This document shows positions 7,486 to 49,300 of a stretch of 64,000 nt of DNA, piece after piece. This stretch comes from a virus. Its lineage: Duplodnaviria; Caudoviricetes. Numbering within the stretch: position 1 is the first letter of the stretch; the number at the start of each line of letters is the position of its first letter. Position numbers and translations under genes: made by a program. The stretch is taken from the IMG/VR virus record IMGVR_UViG_3300032334_001433, positions 138,666 to 202,665 of that record; one strand, 5' to 3'. The notes under the pieces were generated by a model, which was not told where the DNA came from, ran no database searches, and saw only the letters and a program-made list of their open reading frames with translations.

Positions 7486-8142
7486 ATGCAAATTAGTAAT
7501 GAAACAATCCAACTATTAAAGAATTTCGCTGCGATCAACAGTAACATTTTGATTCGTAAAGGAAAGACTTTGTCCACAATCAGTACAGCAAAAAACATTT
7601 TTGCTAAAGCAACTGTGGCTGAAGACTTTCCTGTTGAAGTTCCTGTCTATGATCTAAACTCTTTGTTGGCTTTGCTAACATTGATGGAAAATCAAGATGT
7701 TGAATTCGGTGAAAAGTCTTTGACCATTTCTAAGAACAATGGCAAGTTTGAATACTTCTATTCTAACGCAAGCGTTATTGTTTCGGCTCCAGATAAATCT
7801 ATTGAAATTGATTCTCACTTCAAGTTCAGCTTGACCGCAGAAGATATTAATATGATTATTAAAGCAGCAAATATTACAGCTGCTCCAACAATCTCAGTAA
7901 CATCTAAGGATGGCAATGTTGTCCTTACTGTAGGGGATAAGAAAAATGATACAGCAAATACGTATAAACGTACAATTGGTTCAAGCAAAGATGCATTTGA
8001 ATGCCATATGTCTGTAGATAATTTTAAAGTAATTCCTGATGCTTATGAAATTACAATCTCTAAAAAGAAATTGTTTCACTTTAAACACGCTACAAAATCT
8101 GTAGAATATTTTATTGCAATGGAACCGGATTCTGTAGTATGA
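7486..8142 (+). CDS. 45: Sliding clamp gp45
   Basis: MQISNETIQLLKNFAAINSNI, YFIAMEPDS; T4 synteny. Confidence 0.92.
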   Translation: MQISNETIQLLKNFAAINSNILIRKGKTLSTISTAKNIFAKATVAEDFPVEVPVYDLNSLLALLTLMENQDVEFGEKSLTISKNNGKFEYFYSNASVIVSAPDKSIEIDSHFKFSLTAEDINMIIKAANITAAPTISVTSKDGNVVLTVGDKKNDTANTYKRTIGSSKDAFECHMSVDNFKVIPDAYEITISKKKLFHFKHATKSVEYFIAMEPDSVV

Positions 8143-8380: not shown

Positions 8381-9322
8381 ATGGAAAGAAAAGACGGAGA
8401 ATTTCTCTGGGTTGAGGCGTACCGACCAAGAACATTAGAAGATTGTATTCTTCCTGCAGATCAAAAGAAGGTCTTTCAGGAAATGCTCTCCAAAGGAGAG
8501 ATTCAAAATATGCTATTGTGCGGCGGTGCTGGTATGGGTAAGACTACTATTGCCCGAGCATTATGTGAAGAGTTACAAACTGATTATATCATCATTAACG
8601 GTTCAGAAGAATCTGGTATTGATGTTCTAAGAACAAAGATTAAACAGTTTGCATCTACTGTATCATTTAGCGGTAAAGCAAAAGTAGTTATTCTAGATGA
8701 AGCGGATTATTTGAATCCAAATTCTACACAACCGGCACTTCGTGCTTTTATGGAAGAATTCTCATCGAATTGCAGGTTCATCTTTACTTGTAATTTTAAG
8801 AATCGTATTATTCCTCCGCTTCATTCTAGAACAACTGTTATAGAATTTAAATTACCTAAGAGCGAAAAGCCTAAGATTGCTGGCGCATTCTTTAAACGAG
8901 TATGCGAAATTCTTAAGCATGAGAATGTTGACTTCGATCAAAAGGTTGCAGCAAAAGTAATTGAAAAGCATTTCCCTGATTATCGTCGTATTCTAAATGA
9001 AATGCAGCGTTATAGTTCTTCAGGTAAAATTGACGAAGGCATTCTTGTTAATATGGGCGAAGCCAATATGCAGGAATTGGTTTCTTCTCTTAAAGATAAA
9101 GACTGGAAGAAAATGCGTACATGGGTTGTTAATAACATTGACAATGATCCGCAAACTCTATTTAGAAAATTCTATGATACATTCTGTGATAGTGTAGTAC
9201 AGGTTCCGCAATTAATTTTATTGCTTGCCGACTACCAATATAAGTCTGCATTTTGTGCAGATCAAGAAATTAATTTGGTTGCATGCTTAACTGAGATTAT
9301 GGCTTCTGTTGAATTTAAATAA
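8381..9322 (+). CDS. 44: Clamp loader large subunit gp44
   Basis: WVEAYRP, GGAGMGKTT, ILDEAD, SNCRFI. Confidence 0.95.
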   Translation: MERKDGEFLWVEAYRPRTLEDCILPADQKKVFQEMLSKGEIQNMLLCGGAGMGKTTIARALCEELQTDYIIINGSEESGIDVLRTKIKQFASTVSFSGKAKVVILDEADYLNPNSTQPALRAFMEEFSSNCRFIFTCNFKNRIIPPLHSRTTVIEFKLPKSEKPKIAGAFFKRVCEILKHENVDFDQKVAAKVIEKHFPDYRRILNEMQRYSSSGKIDEGILVNMGEANMQELVSSLKDKDWKKMRTWVVNNIDNDPQTLFRKFYDTFCDSVVQVPQLILLLADYQYKSAFCADQEINLVACLTEIMASVEFK

Positions 9323-9333
9323 CAGTAAATGCT

Positions 9334-9780
9334 ATGAGTTTAGATTTTTTAGGTAAGCCAAAAGAAGAAATAACAGTAACGCCCTATAAGGCGCCAGCAA
9401 TATCGCCTTTCGATTTTATTAATGCTATTCATTATTCTAAGGATAATTTAATAGTTGACGATTGGTCTGAGAAACAATATAACCCTTTTATAATTAATAA
9501 AGGACTTTCATACGGTCACGACACAGTAATTCCTGCAAATGAGATGAATTCTCGTCCACACCTCGATAAAAAGCTACAAAATTCGTTTTTAATAAATATA
9601 ATTAGGCCTAAAAAAAGATTCAATAAATGGATTAAGGCTGAGAAAATTGAAGCGATCGAGGTGATTAAGGAATACTATGGATATAGCACAGATAAAGCAC
9701 GCCAAGTACTCCCACTTTTCGATAAAAATAAATTAGATTATTTAAGAATAAAACTAATAAAAGGTGGTAGGAATGGCTGA
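9334..9780 (+). CDS. 62: Clamp loader small subunit gp62
   Basis: YNPFIINKGLS, KRFNKW, IKEYYGYS; synteny. Confidence 0.9.
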   Translation: MSLDFLGKPKEEITVTPYKAPAISPFDFINAIHYSKDNLIVDDWSEKQYNPFIINKGLSYGHDTVIPANEMNSRPHLDKKLQNSFLINIIRPKKRFNKWIKAEKIEAIEVIKEYYGYSTDKARQVLPLFDKNKLDYLRIKLIKGGRNG

Positions 9781-10201
9781 AGATATTTTTCACATTGATT
9801 TTCCTGGTTATAATCCATTAGAAGTAACCTTGACACAACCGGACGACTTTTTGAAAGTCCGAGAAACACTAACACGCATAGGTGTAGCATCACGAAAAGA
9901 TAAGGTGCTATATCAATCTTGTCATATTCTGCACAAGCAGGGTAGATATTTTATTGTACACTTTAAAGAATTGTTTGCGTTAGATGGCAAATCTGCAGAT
10001 TTAACGGATAATGATCTAGAACGACGAAACACTATTGCTAAATTGCTAATAGATTGGGGTTTAGTAAAAGTCGTAAAACCAGAATTGTTTCAAGAGCTTG
10101 CTCCATTGTCGCAGATTAAAGTAATTGCGTTTAAAGATAAACATGATTGGTCTTTGCAAACAAAATATAATATTGGTAAGAAAAAGCAAACAACAGACTA
10201 A
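9773..10201 (+). CDS. regA: Translational repressor RegA
   Basis: DDFLKVRETLTRIGVAS, LYQSCHILHKQGRYFIVHFKELF. Confidence 0.95.
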   Translation: MAEDIFHIDFPGYNPLEVTLTQPDDFLKVRETLTRIGVASRKDKVLYQSCHILHKQGRYFIVHFKELFALDGKSADLTDNDLERRNTIAKLLIDWGLVKVVKPELFQELAPLSQIKVIAFKDKHDWSLQTKYNIGKKKQTTD

Positions 10202-10208
10202 TAATCTG

Positions 10209-10216
10209 TATAAATA
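10209..10216 (+). promoter_or_regulatory. T4-type late promoter TATAAATA
   Basis: Exact gp55-type consensus upstream of hsp20 leader. Confidence 0.75.
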
Positions 10217-10221
10217 ATTTT

Positions 10222-10405
10222 ATCCCCGGGATGGGATGGCAGGGGGTGCGACCTACGCCATAAGTTAAAACGCACACTAATAACACGGCGGATGCCCTGG
10301 CGTATCCGTTCTTCAATCCCACCTTAGGGCTGTTTGATGCTACGGTATAAGGCGTCCGAGAAATTTCACTGCCACTCGTTAGTTGGCCCTGTATAAAGTA
10401 AGCAG
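10222..10405 (+). ncRNA. Candidate structured RNA in hsp20 leader
   Basis: GC-rich non-coding block with several complementary segments, including a pseudoknot-type pairing. Confidence 0.5.
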
Positions 10406-10413
10406 GAATAACC

Positions 10414-10464
10414 GCTATGCCTTCGGGGTAGCAATTTTAACTCGCTTTTAAGGAGAAAACTATG
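10414..10464 (+). promoter_or_regulatory. ROSE-like RNA thermometer
   Basis: cUUCGg hairpin 10414-10432, then CUCGCU(UUUA)AGGAG hairpin: U(U/C)GCU motif pairs the SD with a bulged G. Confidence 0.55.
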
Positions 10465-10971
10465 ACACATCTGTCAGTATTCGGTCCTGGCTTTAAGGAC
10501 TTTGATAAATTTTTTGTTGGTTTTGATAATCAATTTACTCGCATGGCTAAGATGCATGATGATCTAACGAAAAACATTCCAAGCTATCCTCCATACAACA
10601 TTAAGAAAACAGACGAAAACAAGTATGTTATTGAAATGGCTGTCGCTGGATTTTCCAAGCAGGAAATTGAAATTGAATTTGTAGACGACAAGCTCGTTAT
10701 CAAAGGCAATGCAGCAGAGGATAACGACGCACTAGAGTGGTTGTACAAAGGAATCGCTTCACGTAATTTCACAAGAACATTTGCTCTTAACGATCAAATT
10801 GAAATTAAAGATGCTGCTCTTATTAATGGTATGCTAAAGATTGCTCTTGAGCGTATTATTCCTGAGCACAAGAAGCCAAAGAAAATTGATGTGAAGGATG
10901 ATGCTGAAGTTGCAGCAAAACCTGCAAAAAAATCTAGTAAGCCTCAGTATCTTACAGAAGATGATTTGTGA
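10462..10971 (+). CDS. hsp20: Small heat-shock protein Hsp20
   Basis: YPPYNI, IEMAVAGF, YKGIASRNF, NGML.I.L alpha-crystallin motifs. Confidence 0.95.
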   Translation: MTHLSVFGPGFKDFDKFFVGFDNQFTRMAKMHDDLTKNIPSYPPYNIKKTDENKYVIEMAVAGFSKQEIEIEFVDDKLVIKGNAAEDNDALEWLYKGIASRNFTRTFALNDQIEIKDAALINGMLKIALERIIPEHKKPKKIDVKDDAEVAAKPAKKSSKPQYLTEDDL

Positions 10972-11292: not shown

Positions 11293-11631
11293 ATGATTAA
11301 AATTTTAAAAACAATTACCGGCGAAGAATTGGTCGGCGACGTTACTAGATTGCAGAGTACGTTAACTATAAATAAACCTTTTATGGTAACAATGGCCAGA
11401 GATCCTGCAAACCCGGGCGGCGATATGCAGTTGGCATTATTTCCCTATGTTCCGTATGTAAAAGATCATACATTGTTATTGGATGAAAAAAGTGTAGTGT
11501 GGATGACTGACCTAGTTGATTCTATGGTTAAAGACTATAATAATGCACTTGAATCATTAAAGATTACTGAAGTTGTTCCTGAAAAGAAAGAACAATTTAC
11601 AACCTTTGCGAATATAACAAAGACTATATGA
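11293..11631 (+). CDS. T4-like Sm-like-domain hypothetical protein
   Basis: IKILKTITGEELVGDV pattern. Confidence 0.55.
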   Translation: MIKILKTITGEELVGDVTRLQSTLTINKPFMVTMARDPANPGGDMQLALFPYVPYVKDHTLLLDEKSVVWMTDLVDSMVKDYNNALESLKITEVVPEKKEQFTTFANITKTI

Positions 11632-12043: not shown

Positions 12044-12118
12044 TGCGGGTTGGCGCAGTAGTAGCGCGCTGGACTCATAATCCAGAGGTCGGTGGTGCGA
12101 ATCCATCACCCGCATCCA
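12044..12118 (+). tRNA. trnM: tRNA-Met(CAT), initiator-like
   Basis: TGCGGGT/ACCCGCA acceptor, CTGGA-CTCATAA-TCCAG, T-loop TGCGAAT, CCA. Confidence 0.85.
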
Positions 12119-26842: not shown

Positions 26843-26916
26843 GTTCGGTTAGCTCAATAGTAGAGCATACGACTGATAATCGTAAGACAGAGGAGCGTTA
26901 CCTCTACCGAATACCA
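26843..26916 (+). tRNA. trnI: tRNA-Ile(GAT)
   Basis: TACGA-CTGATAA-TCGTA; atypical T-loop AGCGTTA; CCA. Confidence 0.85.
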
Positions 26917-26921
26917 TATGT

Positions 26922-26997
26922 GTCCTGTTCATCTAGCGGCCTAGGATAGTACCCTTTCACGGTATTCACACGGGTTCAAATCCCGTACAGGACTCCA
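26922..26997 (+). tRNA. trnE: tRNA-Glu(TTC)
   Basis: GTACC-CTTTCAC-GGTAT; CCA. Confidence 0.92.
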
Positions 26998-27000
26998 TAT

Positions 27001-27226
27001 TAAAATGTATTAGGTTACCAACCCAGTAGGTGATCTAGGAGAGGATTAATCTGTGGCCGCACAGACTCTGCCTAGACACATGAAAGATAGAGATCGACTT
27101 TGAATTGATCTTGGCGTCGCGCTGGAGTAAGTTGGATGGTAATGTGAATGACGACCAGTCGCATGACGAATGCGTGGTTAGTCCCAGTGGGATTGTTGTC
27201 GGACATCCTAGTACATTTTAATATGG
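27001..27226 (+). ncRNA. Unidentified highly structured RNA (~220 nt) within tRNA array
   Basis: 20-bp closing helix (26995-27014/27207-27226) plus at least 7 nested helices; no ORF. Confidence 0.75.
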
Positions 27227-27232
27227 ATATAT

Positions 27233-27308
27233 GTGCGCGTGACCCGAACGGTTAGGGAGCGGATTGCAAATCCGTATCATGCAGGTTCGACTCCTGTCGC
27301 GCACTCCA
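27233..27308 (+). tRNA. trnC: tRNA-Cys(GCA)
   Basis: GCGGA-TTGCAAA-TCCGT; U73, CCA. Confidence 0.92.
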
Positions 27309-27378
27309 AGTGATGATTTAGATGTTAAACTGAATGCGCTAGCAAACGTCCAATCAGGTGCGAAGCCTGTCCTAATTT

Positions 27379-27454
27379 GGTCTTAAAGTGTTCATGGACG
27401 CACGACGGCTTGTCACGCCGTAAGAGCGGGGATCGTTACCCCCTAAGACCGCCA
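27379..27454 (+). tRNA. trnD: tRNA-Asp(GTC)
   Basis: ACGGC-TTGTCAC-GCCGT; G73; atypical T-loop ATCGTTA. Confidence 0.85.
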
Positions 27455-27465
27455 AATTTTATTAT

Positions 27466-27542
27466 GCCCTGGTGACGGAATTGGTATACGTACTGGTCTT
27501 AGAAACCAGGTTCTGGGAGTTCAAGTCTCCCCTAGGGCACCA
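27466..27542 (+). tRNA. trnL: tRNA-Leu(TAG), short variable loop
   Basis: CTGGT-CTTAGAA-ACCAG; A73 CCA. Confidence 0.88.
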
Positions 27543-27593
27543 AATACTCGCTTTGACTTATGGCGTATAATAGGCTAAGTAATAAGTCACCTT

Positions 27594-27669
27594 GGGGGAT
27601 TAGCTCATTTGGTAGAGCATCTGCTTTGCAAGCAGGGGGCGATCAGTTCGAATCTGATATTCTCCACCA
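27594..27669 (+). tRNA. trnA: tRNA-Ala(TGC)
   Basis: Anticodon TGC, G3:U70, CCA. Confidence 0.93.
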
Positions 27670-27679
27670 GAATTTTTTT

Positions 27680-27755
27680 GCCGGTTTAGCTCATTTGGTA
27701 GAGCAGGCGCCTTGTAAGCGTCAGGTGGTCAGTTCGAAACCGACAACCGGCACCA
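27680..27755 (+). tRNA. trnT: tRNA-Thr(TGT)
   Basis: GGCGC-CTTGTAA-GCGTC; CCA. Confidence 0.92.
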
Positions 27756-27761
27756 GTATTT

Positions 27762-27835
27762 GCGGGGTTCATTTAATGGTAGGATTTCAGCCTTCCAAGC
27801 TGATAGCGCGAGTTCGATTCTCGCACCCCGCTCCA
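27762..27835 (+). tRNA. trnG: tRNA-Gly(TCC)
   Basis: TCAGC-CTTCCAA-GCTGA; CCA. Confidence 0.93.
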
Positions 27836-27841
27836 ATTTTT

Positions 27842-27919
27842 CCGTGTGTAGCGCAGTCTGGTTAGCGCATCTGCTTTGGGAGCAGAGGGTCGGGAGTTCG
27901 AATCTCTCTACACGGACCA
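27842..27919 (+). tRNA. trnP: tRNA-Pro(TGG)
   Basis: TCTGC-TTTGGGA-GCAGA; CCA. Confidence 0.93.
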
Positions 27920-27925
27920 TTTTAT

Positions 27926-28000
27926 TCCTCGATAGCTCAGAGGTAGAGCAGCAGACTGTTAATCTGTTGGTCCGTGGTTCGACCCCACGTCGAGGAGCCA
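27926..28000 (+). tRNA. trnN: tRNA-Asn(GTT)
   Basis: GCAGA-CTGTTAA-TCTGT; CCA. Confidence 0.93.
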
Positions 28001-28006
28001 GTTTTA

Positions 28007-28093
28007 GGATGCGTGTGCCGAATGGTGAAGGCAGCTGACTGTAAATCAGTGACATAAGAAACGTTGGTGGTTCGAGTCCATCCGCATCCACCA
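28007..28093 (+). tRNA. trnY: tRNA-Tyr(GTA)
   Basis: GCTGA-CTGTAAA-TCAGT; long variable arm; CCA. Confidence 0.93.
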
Positions 28094-28097
28094 AAAC

Positions 28098-28172
28098 GCC
28101 TTGTTAGCTCAGCGGTAGAGCAGCGCCCTTACAAGGCGACGGTCGGCAGTTCAATCCTGTCACAAGGTACCA
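28098..28172 (+). tRNA. trnV: tRNA-Val(TAC)
   Basis: CGCC-CTTACAA-GGCG; CCA. Confidence 0.92.
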
Positions 28173-28193
28173 TTTTTATTTTAAGGAAATTTT

Positions 28194-28463
28194 ATGAACT
28201 ATATCCCATTGCAGAACAAAGTTCTGGTCATTGAGAATGAAAAGAAAAAAGTTACAGATAGCGGAATCTATTTAGGTGAAGCTAATGGAGACAGCAATAC
28301 TCGAGCAGGTACAGTTCTTGCTATTGGGCCGGATGTTAAAGAAGTAAAGGTTGGAGATATTGTTTATCCTATGTGGACAAAATCAAAAGTAGTTAAAGAC
28401 GGAGACTTGTATATTGGAATTATATCTGAAGAAGATATTCTTGCAGTTGTAGAAGCTGAATAA
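28194..28463 (+). CDS. groES: GroES-like co-chaperonin
   Basis: PLQNKVLV, T.SGIYL, GTVLAIGP, VKVGDIV. Confidence 0.9.
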   Translation: MNYIPLQNKVLVIENEKKKVTDSGIYLGEANGDSNTRAGTVLAIGPDVKEVKVGDIVYPMWTKSKVVKDGDLYIGIISEEDILAVVEAE

Positions 28464-28470
28464 GATTTTT

Positions 28471-28545
28471 CTGCCGATAGTTCAACGGATAGAACAGTAG
28501 CCTTCTAAGCTATTAATAGAGGTTCGATTCCTCTTCGGCGGACCA
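28471..28545 (+). tRNA. trnR: tRNA-Arg(TCT)
   Basis: GTAGC-CTTCTAA-GCTAT; CCA. Confidence 0.92.
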
Positions 28546-28552
28546 TTTTTGT

Positions 28553-28626
28553 TGGGGGTTAGTGTAGCGGTAACACTACAGACTTTGACTCTGTCATCAC
28601 TGGTTCGATCCCAGTACCCTCTGCCA
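28553..28626 (+). tRNA. trnQ: tRNA-Gln(TTG)
   Basis: ACAGA-CTTTGAC-TCTGT; CCA. Confidence 0.92.
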
Positions 28627-28680
28627 AATTTTTTAAAAAGGAGATCTGTCATGAATAGTGACAAGAGTGATAAGATATAC

Positions 28681-28756
28681 GGGACGTTAGCTCAGTTGGT
28701 AGAGCAGTAGACTTTTAATCTATTGGCCATTGGTTCGAATCCAATACGTCCTACCA
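28681..28756 (+). tRNA. trnK: tRNA-Lys(TTT)
   Basis: GTAGA-CTTTTAA-TCTAT; CCA. Confidence 0.93.
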
Positions 28757-28771
28757 TAAAACTTTTTAGGT

Positions 28772-28844
28772 GTGGCCTTAGTGTTAGCGGTTAGCACCTC
28801 GGATTGTGATTCCGATAGGATGGATTCGAATTCCATAGGCCACC
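28772..28844 (+). tRNA. trnH: tRNA-His(GTG), no encoded CCA or G-1
   Basis: TCGGA-TTGTGAT-TCCGA; C73; flanked by 13-bp inverted repeat. Confidence 0.85.
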
Positions 28845-28861
28845 CCTAAAAAGTTTTTATT

Positions 28862-28937
28862 GCCGCGGTAGCTCATCAGGTAGAGCAGCAGACTGAAAAT
28901 CTGTGTGTGGATGGTTCGAGTCCATCTCGTGGCACCA
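28862..28937 (+). tRNA. trnF: tRNA-Phe(GAA)
   Basis: GCAGA-CTGAAAA-TCTGT; CCA. Confidence 0.93.
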
Positions 28938-28951
28938 ATTTAGAAAAATAT

Positions 28952-29028
28952 GTCTCGGTAGCTCAATTAGGCAGAGCAGTGGCCTCCAAAGCCAAAGGTT
29001 GTAAGTTCGATTCTTACCCGGGATGCCA
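28952..29028 (+). tRNA. trnW: tRNA-Trp(CCA)
   Basis: TGGC-CTCCAAA-GCCA; G73 CCA. Confidence 0.9.
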
Positions 29029-29037
29029 AAGAATAAC

Positions 29038-29125
29038 GGAAGATTGGCAGAGTGGCCGATTGCATCAGTCTTGAAAACTGAAGGCTCGAAAGGGTCCGTG
29101 AGTTCGAATCTCACATCTTCCTCCA
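29038..29125 (+). tRNA. trnS: tRNA-Ser(TGA)
   Basis: TCAGT-CTTGAAA-ACTGA; long variable arm. Confidence 0.93.
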
Positions 29126-29130
29126 AATAA

Positions 29131-29220
29131 GGAGAGCGGGCAGGATGGTAATGCAGCAGATTGCTAATCTGTAGACTATAGTAATATGGTCACAGGGTTC
29201 GACTCCCTGGCTCTCCACCA
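29131..29220 (+). tRNA. trnS: tRNA-Ser(GCT)
   Basis: GCAGA-TTGCTAA-TCTGT; long variable arm. Confidence 0.92.
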
Positions 29221-29225
29221 ATTAA

Positions 29226-29260
29226 GGACAGATGCAAGCACTAGCTTGTTGAGTCCACCA
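29226..29260 (+). ncRNA. CCA-terminated minihelix (tRNA relic or mimic)
   Basis: GGAC/GTCC + CAAGC-ACTA-GCTTG + ACCA. Confidence 0.4.
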
Positions 29261-29265
29261 ATTTA

Positions 29266-29342
29266 CGGCCCTTAATTCAACTGGATAGAAAGCAAGTCTT
29301 CGAAACTTGAGGTTGGGAGTTCGAATCTCTCAGGGCCGGCCA
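29266..29342 (+). tRNA. trnR: tRNA-Arg(TCG)
   Basis: CAAGT-CTTCGAA-ACTTG; CCA. Confidence 0.9.
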
Positions 29343-29349
29343 TATATAT

Positions 29350-29425
29350 GGTAACGTAGCATAGTGGCTAATGCACCACCTTCATACGGTGTTTATCGTC
29401 GGTTCGAGTCCGACCGTTACTACCA
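29350..29425 (+). tRNA. trnM: tRNA-Met(CAT), elongator-like
   Basis: CACC-TTCATAC-GGTG; GGTAACG acceptor. Confidence 0.8.
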
Positions 29426-29431
29426 AATAAT

Positions 29432-29505
29432 GCGGGTATGATGTAATGGTAGCTTATGACCTTGCCAAGGTTAATGTGAGAGTTCGATTCTCTCTACCCG
29501 CTCCA
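29432..29505 (+). tRNA. trnG: tRNA-Gly(GCC)
   Basis: TGACC-TTGCCAA-GGTTA; weak D-stem; CCA. Confidence 0.88.
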
Positions 29506-31464: not shown

Positions 31465-31547
31465 GCCCGAGTGGTGGAATGGTAGACACAGGAGACTTAA
31501 AATCTCCCGCCTAGTGCGTGCTGGTTCGAGTCCGGTCTCGGGTACCA
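31465..31547 (+). tRNA. trnL: tRNA-Leu(TAA)
   Basis: GGAGA-CTTAAAA-TCTCC; long variable arm; CCA. Confidence 0.93.
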
Positions 31548-46300: not shown

Positions 46301-49300
46301 TTGCTACAAACGCAAACGTAACATTCGGACAATTAAATGTTACAGGGCCAGTTAATTTTTACGGCAATGTAACAACGCACGCATCAAATAATCTGTCCAT
46401 ATCGGACAATATGATTTATTTGAATTCAGGTTCGGAAGCATCTAATCCTGACCTAGGATTTGCCGGCAATTATAATGATGGATCATATCATCATACTGGT
46501 TTCTTCCGCGACGCAAGAAATAATGGTACATGGAAAGTATTTGAAAACTATTCTCCAGAACCAGATGCTAATATCTACATTGATACTTCGCACCCCTCAT
46601 TTAGATTAGCAAATCTTGCAGCAAATTATTTGTTTGGTAATCTAATTGGTACAATTAGTTCTTTAGATAACTTTACCACAAGTAATCTAAGAGAAGGTGC
46701 AAACTTATATTATACAAATGCTAGAATAGAAAGTTATTTCTCTAATATTACAACTAGCTTATTGCCAATTGTTGGCAATGCACTTGATATTGGATCTAGT
46801 GATAGACCATTTAGAGATTTATGGTTATATGGTAACTCAATTAAATTCTCTAATTCTGGCTCTATAAGTTCAACGGGCAACACCTTCGTAATGACGGATT
46901 CTAGTAATACCATCATTATGAGTGCGAATGCCAACGCATTAGTAATTACTTCTCCATCAGGTAAAATTGACGGAAGCTTAATTTCTTCATCTGGATTATC
47001 AAGCGCAAATATTCCTGAAGGCGGAGCAAACTTATATTATTCTAATACAAGAGTTTTAGCAAATATAATTCCGCTATTAAATTTGAAAGCAAACGTAACA
47101 GATTTAACGACTGCAAATATTGTTGAAGTTGGAAATAATTTATATTTCTCTAATGTTAAAGCCGTTAATGCTATTACTCAAACTGCTTTGAGTAATTTAA
47201 CGATATCTGGAAATATAGCATCGCCGACTGGTAATCTAGTTATAGATACAATTACAACAAATAGAATTGTTGCTAATACTTGGTCGGGTATAACTACTGC
47301 AAAGGTTCCTGAAGCAGTTGATAATCTGTATTTTACTAATACAAGAGCTCAATTGGCATTACAGCCAACAATTGCAGAATTAAGAGCATCAATAACTGCT
47401 CCTGTTGCAAATGTAATTTATGTTGCTAAGAACGGAAACGATAATAATACAGGCAATACCGCAAGTAATGCTTTGGCAAATATCCATATCGCATTGGCAA
47501 GAGCAACAGAATGGACTACTGTTTTTGTTAAGAGCGGAGACTATACCTTATACAACCAACCAGTAACAATTGGTCGTCGTGTTGGTTTAGTGGGTGACAA
47601 TTTAAGAACAACTACAATTAGGCCATCTCAGCCAGCAGTTGATATGTTCTATGTTAACAATGCTTGCTACGTAACAGGATTTACATTCAGAGACCATATT
47701 GCTCCTTCGGCAGTATTCTCATACAATCCGGATGGATCTGCAGGTACAATTGTTACCAGCCCATATATTCAAAATTCCAGCTCAATTACAACTACCGGTA
47801 CAGGTATGCGTGTAGATGGCAGATATGTTTCTGGTCTACGTTCAATGGTTTGTGATTCTTATACACAAACTAATGAAGGTGGTATTGGTATCCATATGTT
47901 GTATAGAGGCTACACTCAGTTAGTTTCTGTGTTTACAATTTGTTGCCATATTGCTATCAAATGTGAAACGGGCGGCTTCTGTTCCATAACAAACTCTAAC
48001 GCATCGTTTGGTACATACGCATTGTATGCTGACGGCGTTAGCGAGGCATTATATTATGGTAAATTAAGAGATGACACATTGGGTCAAGAATTTGTATTTA
48101 CAAATCTATCACAAAGACCAAATTATGGAGACTCTGTTTTATTTGCAACATACAATCAAGATAAATGTGCAAGAGACTCTGGTTTAATTGTAGATTCATT
48201 GGCATTTGATTTGGCGTACGGCGGCAATACTCAAGCAACCTTTGCAGGTCTACAATATTGGGCACAGACAGAATCGGCAATTCCAAATCAATCAGTTGAA
48301 ACATTGGCGGCAATTAATTATGCTAAAGATTTAGCATTAAACGTAATAGCAAATGTTAGAGTATCTTATACATATCAAGGATCTAATGTTCAACAGTATG
48401 CATCTGCACCAACATTAATTGCAGATCCCACATCGAATGTTAAGGTTGCTTCGGAGTTTGATATTATAACAGGTATTATTACCAATGGTACAGTTGGCGT
48501 AACAGATTTAATAATTCCTAATTCATATCCTGCAAATACTAATGCATATGTAAATCATGCATCGAATTTATTATATAGAAATAATACATTCATTGCATCA
48601 GAAGTTGTAGCATTTGTAAATTCTACATATCCAGGATTTACATATAATGCAAATACTTGCGCTAGAGATGTTGGATTTATTTTAGATACAATTAGATTTG
48701 ATTTATTGCACGGCGGTAATAAGCAAGCAGTCCAAGCAGGTACTTACTACTACAATTATAACGCATCGACTACACAAATTAATGACCAGGTTGTACAAAC
48801 AGGTGCAGCATATAATTATATTGGTCAAATTATAACCAATGTTATAACAAAGAAAAAGAATGCGGCGTATAATCAAGATAAATGCGAAAGAGATACTGGT
48901 CTAATTGTTGACTCGGTGTTAATGGATCTTGCGTATGGAAGCAATTCGCAATCCATATTTGCTGGTCTGCAATATTGGTCACAGACAGATTCTGCAATAC
49001 CTACACAGTCCGATGAAACCGTTGCAGCAATAAATTATGCTAAAACTTTAGCAGTTAATATCGCAAGTGATACTGTAATTTCTTCTCCTTATCAAGGAAC
49101 AGTTACTCAAGTTAGAGGAACTGCAGGAACTGCTGCAGGCAAAGTTACAGATGAATTTAATTTAATTGTTGACATAATTAATAACGGAACAGTTGGTGTA
49201 ACAGATAGAATTGTACCAAATTCATTCCCAGCAAATACAAATGTTGGATTAAATAATTCTGCAAATCTAATTTATTTAAACAAATCATTTATTCAAGCAG

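Follow-up and report, generated by a model that had tools for sequence, protein, structure and literature searches.

Comparative evidence for a modular, pseudoknotted RNA leader joined to a ROSE-like element upstream of hsp20 in T4-like phages

The DNA analyzed here, henceforth termed the window, comprises the last 64 kb (64,000 nucleotides) of an IMG/VR virus record that is complete, spans 202,665 bp, and carries terminal repeats. It contains genes for a sliding clamp (7486-8142), a clamp loader (8381-9322 and 9334-9780), and RegA (9776-10201; PF01818, E 5e-49), followed on the plus strand by hsp20 (10462-10971; PF00011, E 6e-19), which encodes an IbpA-like small heat-shock protein of 169 amino acids. 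This gene order is typical of T4-like phages, and the Hsp20 protein together with a short DNA match in regA identifies Kyanoviridae, i.e., pelagiphages, Methylophilales phages, and cyanophages, as the nearest cultured relatives. The 260-nt gap between regA and hsp20 opens with a T4-type late promoter on the plus strand, TATAAATA (10209-10216), from which transcripts would start at about position 10222 as judged from T4 late-promoter geometry. An initial annotation had described the segment 10222-10405 as a GC-rich, non-coding stretch between this promoter and hsp20, which is borne out: it directly follows regA and the promoter, its GC content is 46-49% compared to about 33% in the flanks, and it contains neither a plus-strand open reading frame (ORF) of 30 or more amino acids nor a tRNA or tmRNA recognized by ARAGORN. 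Elsewhere in the window, Rfam identifies 25 tRNA genes, most of them in a dense array at 26843-29502; two others lie at 31465 and 32159, and a single tRNA-Met(CAU) stands apart at 12044-12118.

The initial annotation had also proposed that this segment forms a multiply pseudoknotted RNA held together by five helices, and all five complementary pairs are present in the sequence at the coordinates given. In 10222-10405, however, perfect complementary k-mers are as numerous as in dinucleotide shuffles (19 versus 15.7 +/- 4.7 for k=5, 4 versus 3.8 for k=6, and 1 versus 1.0 for k=7). Likewise, the minimum free energy (MFE) of 10215-10445 is not better than that of shuffles, with z-scores of +0.29 on the plus strand and +0.10 on the minus strand. 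With k-mers and MFE at shuffle level, the single sequence proves nothing, and the case for a structured RNA therefore rests on comparison.

For this comparison, we collected 80 loci by an Hsp20 protein-guided scan of IMG/VR and added further leaders by a first pattern scan. From these two sources we drew 78 distinct leaders, each spanning promoter to ATG. A second, more specific scan with a pattern for one part of the leader, termed module B below, gave 127 matches in total over all loci examined, and the overall basis of comparison amounts to about 140 related leaders from uncultured T4-like phages. Most of the 78 leaders carry a TATAAATA-type motif 4-6 nt 5' of their first hairpin, which begins at most 8 nt, and mostly 4-6 nt, after the motif and thus coincides with the predicted 5' end. 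All 78 precede either hsp20 or an ORF of about 73 amino acids that is itself followed by hsp20. This conserved ORF, which starts with MFYSNMAIDSIQ or MLQNINTAIDTFQ and is found in most relatives (e.g., L003:2669-2890, L004:2778-2999, and L073:2739-2966), is missing in the window and in locus L002; it has no Pfam match and is phasin-like in composition by eye.

The full leader arrangement of the window was found in only six loci (L001-L006), at 84-100% identity. Among these, L003-L005 are the closest relatives that carry the ~73-aa ORF. In the same three loci (L003:2273-2400, L004, and L005), the gene 5' of the leader is not regA and ends in CGCGSSFTV, which by eye is IscA/HesB-like; since the upstream gene differs, the leader cassette has moved between neighborhoods. 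Six other loci (L010:2782-2853, L019, L027, L038, L061, and L224) contain a 23-aa ORF just 5' of the leader that resembles by eye PqqA, the peptide precursor in PQQ biosynthesis, which would be an unusual gene for a phage. A blastn search of the leader against 50,697 phage records returned no match. Covariance model searches, one of the checks suggested with the initial annotation, assigned 10222-10405 to no Rfam 15 family, with no hit reaching the gathering score either in this part of the window or in any of 15 related loci; at E <= 10 over 10100-10560, only a weak ROSE_3 match in the 3' part of the leader (module T) and snoRNA noise were obtained.

Alignment of related leaders revealed that the segment is conserved and rich in compensatory changes, albeit mostly in other helices than those proposed in the initial annotation. 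In 25 long-form leaders, 97% of the positions are paired as modeled and 14 pairs show double changes, values for which 0 of 500 shuffles were at least as high; when the structures are slid by 1-3 columns, pairing drops to 30-47%. The structured RNA is encoded on the plus strand, because many conserved U-G pairs, which are frequent (e.g., 51 of 63 copies at one pair of hairpin B3), would be A-C on the other strand. Taken together, the alignments strongly support a conserved, multiply pseudoknotted plus-strand RNA of separable modules. As read from these comparisons, the 240-nt untranslated leader (10222-10461) is modular and consists of module A, a lineage-specific hairpin, module B, and module T. 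Relatives combine the same parts differently, in leaders with T only (67-87 nt), A-T (about 120 nt), B-T (about 160 nt), or A-B-T (160-290 nt).

The pseudoknotted, non-coding RNA of the initial annotation is thus upheld by covariation, but its knots turn out to be local and of the H type rather than long-range, and only one of its five helices is retained. This helix, GTGCG/CGCAC (10246-50/10271-75), forms stem 2 (S2) of a pseudoknot in module A, while the other four are wrong or unsupported. The pairing of 10325-32 with 10384-91 is 81% complete in the alignment, a value that 395 of 500 shuffles match or exceed; 10290-96/10351-57 is broken in L003-L006 with no compensation; and TACGCCA/TGGCGTA (10254-60/10298-304) is broken in L006. 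The remaining helix, TGGCAG/CTGCCA (10237-42/10369-74), stays possible through G-U in the six close relatives, yet its 3' arm is engaged in S2 of a module B pseudoknot, PK-P. This stem covaries at 5/5 pairs and persists in leaders that lack module A and with it the 5' arm of the proposed helix. For the alternative folds that had been suggested, no evidence was found.

Module A opens with a 5'-terminal hairpin, P0 (10222-10237, plus strand), in which AUCCC (10222-26) pairs with GGGAU (10233-37) below a GGGA tetraloop of the GNRA type (10228-31). The loop varies between GGGA and GAGA with the GNRA consensus kept, and the 5' strand varies between UCCC, UCUC, and CCUC opposite an invariant GGGA, i.e., with G-C to G-U exchanges only. 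A conserved G(G/A)GAUGGGA motif is explained by the GNRA loop and the 3' strand of P0, and the GGGAUGGGA motif is accordingly read as a GNRA loop. GGA sites of the CsrA type in P0 were dropped by eye, the loop being GAGA in some relatives. P0 is followed by PK-A (10236-10275, plus strand), an H-type pseudoknot that recurs in relatives. Its first stem (S1) joins AUGGC (10236-40) to GCCAU (10257-61) and AGG (10241-43) to CCU (10252-54), S2 is the retained helix (GUGCG/CGCAC), and loop 3 (10262-70) is A-rich.

PK-A is invariant among the six close relatives, and its counterparts in other lineages differ in sequence while keeping the shape. In 21 of the 23 distinct module A sequences, an H-type pseudoknot starts 0-5 nt past the GGG of GGGAUGGG. 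The stems of these pseudoknots are unrelated in sequence between lineages and loop 3 is always A-rich; most are significant against shuffles (p <= 0.03), with p = 0.002 in the window. Downstream of PK-A lies the lineage-specific inserted hairpin, identified by comparison of relatives, which pairs CGGAUGC with GUAUCCG (10289-95/10302-08, plus strand). In L005 it has undergone a compensatory change from G-C to A-U and a change from G-U to A-U, in L006 it is replaced at the same place by a different, longer hairpin, and in other lineages it is absent. A scan for the promoter plus GGGATGGGA found no module A before other genes: the true matches with enough downstream sequence all lead into module T and hsp20, and one (L333) runs off its contig end. 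Neither module A nor module B has a further copy in this genome.

Module B (10314-10406, plus strand) was delineated by covariation in 63 distinct copies, which show a compact arrangement of a hairpin, two H-type pseudoknots, and a second hairpin that reaches back with its loop to pair with the loop of a pseudoknot. The first hairpin, B1, pairs CCC (10318-20) with GGG (10327-29) around the loop ACCUUA. It is followed by pseudoknot PK-B, with CUGU (10330-33)/ACGG (10342-45) as S1 and GAUGC (10336-40)/GCGUC (10352-56) as S2, and by PK-P, with CGAG (10357-60)/CUCG (10375-78) as S1, GCCA (10371-74)/UGGC (10384-87) as S2, and a lone pair A10361-U10366 around AAUU. The terminal hairpin, B3, pairs CCUGU (10388-92) with GCAGG (10402-06), and its loop is linked to loop 1 of PK-P by a tertiary helix of three pairs, ACU (10368-70)/AGU (10397-99). 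Of all cells in the 63 copies, 97.5% are paired and 13 pairs show double changes, with 0 of 500 shuffles reaching the observed values and slid controls falling to 30-42%. In each of PK-A, PK-B, and PK-P, the strands, as tested, run in the H-type order S1a-S2a-S1b-S2b with compensatory change in each helix. Particularly informative are the PK-P S1 pair 10359-10376, which occurs as three pair types, and the tertiary pair 10370-10397, which is U-A in 32 copies, C-G in 31, and unpaired in none. RNAalifold independently recovers B1, PK-P S2, and B3. The weakest parts are PK-B S1, with only two double changes, in long forms, and PK-B S2 (also termed B2), in which 15 copies are mismatched at one pair and covariation emerges only when long forms are set against medium ones. 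About 30 loop and junction bases are invariant, and the covariance model R1 assigns 111 bits to the B copy of the window, the only one in the genome.

In the shorter medium forms, from which PK-P is missing, all 27 copies show covariation of a homologous GCYG/CRGU pairing. Here, GCYG, located immediately upstream of the B2 stem, base-pairs to CRGU within the loop of B3 (e.g., L016:2636-2720 and L039:2066-2150), as GCUG/CAGU in 20 copies, as GCCG/CGGU in 5, and as two G-U variants; this pairing is the counterpart of the 10368-70/10397-99 helix of the window. Another observation concerns C10375 in the 3' strand of PK-P S1, which covaries in Watson-Crick fashion with loop-3 G10382 (C-G 48, U-A 13, broken 0) and also pairs with G10360. 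The C10375-G10382 covariation may reflect a base triple or, alternatively, a longer S2 that leaves U10383 bulged out. Two loci (L029:2855-2934 and L046:2422-2517) carry two ACG-type motifs in the B2 loop, suggesting that the linker after B1 and a conserved 5' GGGAACG(U/C) can both pair into this loop; in L029, GCGU in the B2 loop is complementary to the 5' ACGC. Three candidate interactions were discarded. A kissing pair between the B1 and B3 loops (ACCUUA with UAAGGU) is 86% paired, shows no covariation, and has a C-A mismatch in half of the copies; pairing with PK-P loop 1 fully accounts for the A/G variation instead. An RNAalifold alternative that pairs the ACGG loop with CCG (10356-58) involves invariant bases only and conflicts with the covarying S1, and a role of B1 as an anti-SD mimic for the real Shine-Dalgarno (SD) sequence was dropped by eye because the SD context varies.

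Unlike module A, which was found only in hsp20 leaders, module B also occurs without hsp20 and is therefore autonomous. Among its 127 pattern matches, 110 are followed by a T module, 8 are not, 5 run off contig ends, and 4 are chance matches in GC-rich coding DNA. Intact copies without T or hsp20 lie upstream of unrelated genes in L206, L213, L224, L225, L230, and L281, and a B1/PK-B variant occurs in other phage contexts in L190 and L286. In five of the six T-less loci, the module lies 30-35 nt before a start codon, the exception being L206 with a gap of about 75 nt that contains a sigma-70-like promoter. The T-less copies keep all helices, and the one in L225, which even has private compensatory changes, precedes a homologue of the window ORF at 11293-11631 that normally lies beyond hsp20. 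In L180, L230, and L281, module B follows regA with no promoter in between, so it is not always near a 5' end. In L206 (1904-1998, minus strand), an intact B directly follows regA with no late promoter, and downstream of it lie the sigma-70-like promoter (TTGACA, 17 nt, TAGAAT) and a small membrane-protein ORF; this copy would be a 3'-UTR element of regA.

The 3' part of the leader, module T, consists of two hairpins. T1 (10414-10432, plus strand) is a GC-rich hairpin, GCUAU(G)CC-UUCG-GGGUAGC, with a bulged G10419, and is followed by an A/U-rich linker. It is 100% paired among relatives, shows double changes at 4/7 pairs, varies in its loop between UUCG, GAAA, GCAA, and UAAU, is conserved as far as marine cyanophages, and supplies the stable upstream hairpin of a ROSE-type arrangement with 2-4 hairpins. 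ROSE-like elements are defined by a U(U/C)GCU motif that forms an imperfect helix with the SD within the hairpin nearest the 3' end (PMC3669281). In T2 (10441-10455, plus strand), the anti-SD CUCGCU (10441-46, with a bulged G10444) faces the SD AGGAG (10451-55), and every leader has either CUCGCU or CUUGCU, i.e., the defining U(U/C)GCU motif. Since T2 is invariant, it has no covariation support of its own. It lies in the 5' UTR of an Hsp20/IbpA gene, with the AUG at 10462 unpaired and 6 nt past the hairpin.

When the T module is folded in isolation, T2 is its MFE structure, with a calculated dG of -1.8 kcal/mol at 37 C and -4.3 at 15 C. In a nearest-neighbor calculation, the probability that the SD is unpaired rises from 0.12 at 5 C to 0.23 at 37 C and 0.40 at 50 C, so melting is predicted to proceed gradually and to be slight in the temperature range that a lake phage encounters. 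The match to Rfam ROSE_3 in the window scores 18.8 bits (E 0.17) and the best homologous element, in Methylophilales phage Melnitz-3, 34.1 bits (E 5e-4), both below the gathering score of 43 bits that marks Rfam membership. A two-hairpin T module on its own, after a TATAAATA-like motif, directly precedes hsp20 in 6/6 cultured Kyanoviridae inspected (L404:742-804, L405, L406, L407, L408, and L409:690-752), i.e., Melnitz-3, Mosig, HTVC008M, S-CRM01, WH25-B, and P-SSM2, in the last of which the stretch is unannotated. A ROSE-like T module therefore seems to be widespread at the hsp20 genes of Kyanoviridae as a general feature that has gone undescribed; our literature search found no publication on ROSE-type thermometers at hsp20 of T4-like phages. 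A T-module pattern scan of genome contigs gave one chance match, inside a Bacteroidales coding region, and no bacterial source at that stringency. A second CTCGCT...GGAG match in the phage genome, at position 46359 outside the window, may be due to chance.

What the conserved RNA represents can be read in several ways. That its complementarity is a product of chance in a GC-rich spacer, conserved by recent common descent alone, can scarcely be the case: k-mer complementarity and MFE of the single sequence are indeed at shuffle level, but dozens of compensatory double changes occur in helices that differ wholly in sequence between lineages, and column-slid structures are only 30-47% paired. The initial annotation had left open whether the segment is a cis-regulatory domain or an independent ncRNA. 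A structured RNA located in cis is what we find; an independent RNA is a minority possibility, because the terminator scan called none between the element and hsp20 in the window. In its explicit form, which we consider very unlikely, the upstream part would be a separate, trans-acting small RNA of about 215 nt ending at T1 and a U run, with hsp20 reached only by read-through. In many relatives, the GC-rich T1 stem precedes a run of 4-8 U, and in some of them (e.g., L038, L107, and L167) it looks like an intrinsic terminator, in which case the upstream part would be a separate RNA; the autonomy of module B also fits this reading. In the window, however, only four U follow, two bases past the stem, and the T1-T2 pair matches the two-hairpin Pseudomonas ibpA thermometer, in which hairpin I is structural. 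T1, moreover, sits at the transcript start in T-only leaders and cannot terminate there; we thus discarded it as a terminator.

Two further readings concern module B, which is more heavily conserved in sequence than a mere RNase obstacle would need. It might, perhaps together with module A, be a protein operator, with the phage IbpA-like Hsp20 as prime candidate for a self-repressing factor that is titrated by aggregated proteins in the manner of E. coli IbpA; we regard this as rather doubtful. IbpA binds its own structured 5' UTR, an activity that depends on R93, on positively charged residues 97 and 98, and on an aromatic side chain at position 34 (PMC10474464). Phage Hsp20 is 44% identical to E. 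coli IbpA, and its Y42, R101, and R105 correspond to IbpA Y34, R93, and R97, residues not kept in IbpB, which lacks the activity. By alignment, the phage protein would thus qualify as IbpA-type, although T106 replaces K98. Invariant loop bases over covarying stems also fit a protein site, yet B is found before unrelated genes on contigs with no following hsp20, T-only leaders are common, and in E. coli the thermometer alone suffices as binding site. It is likewise improbable, and a shade more so, that module B serves as aptamer in a hitherto unknown riboswitch or cleaves itself as a small ribozyme, in either case as an autonomous element placed by phages before various genes. The compact ~93-nt fold with three crossing helices, its roughly 30 invariant unpaired or junction bases, the portability between gene contexts, and the covariation of loop 3 with stem 1 (C10375/G10382), as in triplex pseudoknots, would suit such an element, and the conservation is aptamer-like. 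Against it, no Rfam 15 riboswitch or ribozyme matches even at E <= 10, no terminator or SD-masking alternative pairing tied to B was found, including by eye for pairing to T1, T2, or a terminator, and the downstream genes share no common metabolic theme. An HDV-like nested fold was dropped by eye, since the strand order differs from this topology.

We lean towards reading 10222-10405 as the 5' three-quarters of an hsp20 mRNA leader of about 240 nt that is transcribed from a T4-type late promoter and composed of independently folded modules. Their roles can be proposed from the architecture. Because their shape is conserved, their sequence free, and their place always at the 5' end, P0 and PK-A likely act physically; they would cap the transcript, obstruct 5'-end-dependent RNase attack, and thereby extend mRNA lifetime. 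For module B, we consider it likely that a portable domain acts in cis by folding into a specific three-dimensional shape that would bind a factor, either a protein or a small ligand, or would shield or enhance the downstream start site; alternatively, it would affect the stability or translation of whatever lies downstream. Module T would act as a short ROSE-type RNA thermometer, in which the weak T2 hairpin with its bulged G would mask the ribosome-binding site in the cold and open when warm. A more far-reaching proposal, which we put forward only tentatively, is that module B belongs to a new class of autonomous RNA, i.e., a triply knotted ~93-nt fold moved between genes as a ligand- or protein-sensing switch or a self-processing element.

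Parts of this leader resemble known systems. The T module is closest to Pseudomonas ibpA ROSE (Rfam ROSE_3, RF02523), a short, two-hairpin thermometer with a structural hairpin I (PMC3669281). Both lie in the 5' UTR of an IbpA-type small heat-shock protein gene and share a GC-rich hairpin I, a single-stranded linker, a short hairpin II in which U(U/C)GCU with a bulged G imperfectly pairs with the SD, and a free AUG. The phage element, however, scores below the family threshold (18.8, or 34.1 in the best relative, versus 43), is transcribed from a late promoter of the phage instead of a sigma-32 promoter, and has its own conserved bulged G in hairpin I; the sequence upstream of it (10222-10405) has no counterpart in ROSE elements. 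A long, structured leader of a small heat-shock protein gene in which upstream hairpins help the sensor is found in rhizobial multi-hairpin ROSE elements and E. coli ibpA (PMC10474464), and the phage protein has residues that E. coli IbpA uses to bind its own leader. The upstream phage elements, in contrast, are H-type pseudoknots with invariant loops instead of simple hairpins, and module B is portable to other genes. With regard to the 5' end, stem-loops and other structural obstacles at the 5' terminus are known to protect bacterial mRNAs of the ompA type from RNase E (cited in PMC3669281). Every leader type here has a hairpin at or a few nt from the transcript start, with stems free in sequence, a likeness that for the phage is judged from position; module B, by contrast, is far more conserved than a simple obstacle needs. 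A T4-type precedent also exists: the leader of T4 gene 32 mRNA has a 5' H-type pseudoknot that nucleates binding of the autoregulatory protein. As in the hsp20 leader, a T4-type mRNA there starts with an H-type pseudoknot and continues into an A/U-rich stretch before the start codon, whereas the gene is a different one, sequence similarity is absent, and the hsp20 leader comprises up to three pseudoknots in a row plus a thermometer.

The RNA described here is a new family joined to a putative thermometer of a known type. With more than 60 distinct copies of module B and three pseudoknot types, it represents an uncatalogued, well-supported structured RNA family, and the compact multi-pseudoknot fold of module B lends itself to structural study. 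If module B senses a signal as tentatively proposed above, the A-B-T leader would combine two inputs, temperature and a second signal, in one composite sensor. Thermometers of the ROSE type, which are known from alpha- and gamma-proteobacteria, would be a standard, late-promoter-driven part of hsp20 genes in T4-like cyanophages, pelagiphages, and their lake relatives. This raises the testable questions of why phages carry a small heat-shock protein and whether its synthesis is tuned to temperature or to protein aggregation during infection, which can be addressed at the bench because the cultured phages P-SSM2, S-CRM01, and HTVC008M carry the T module.
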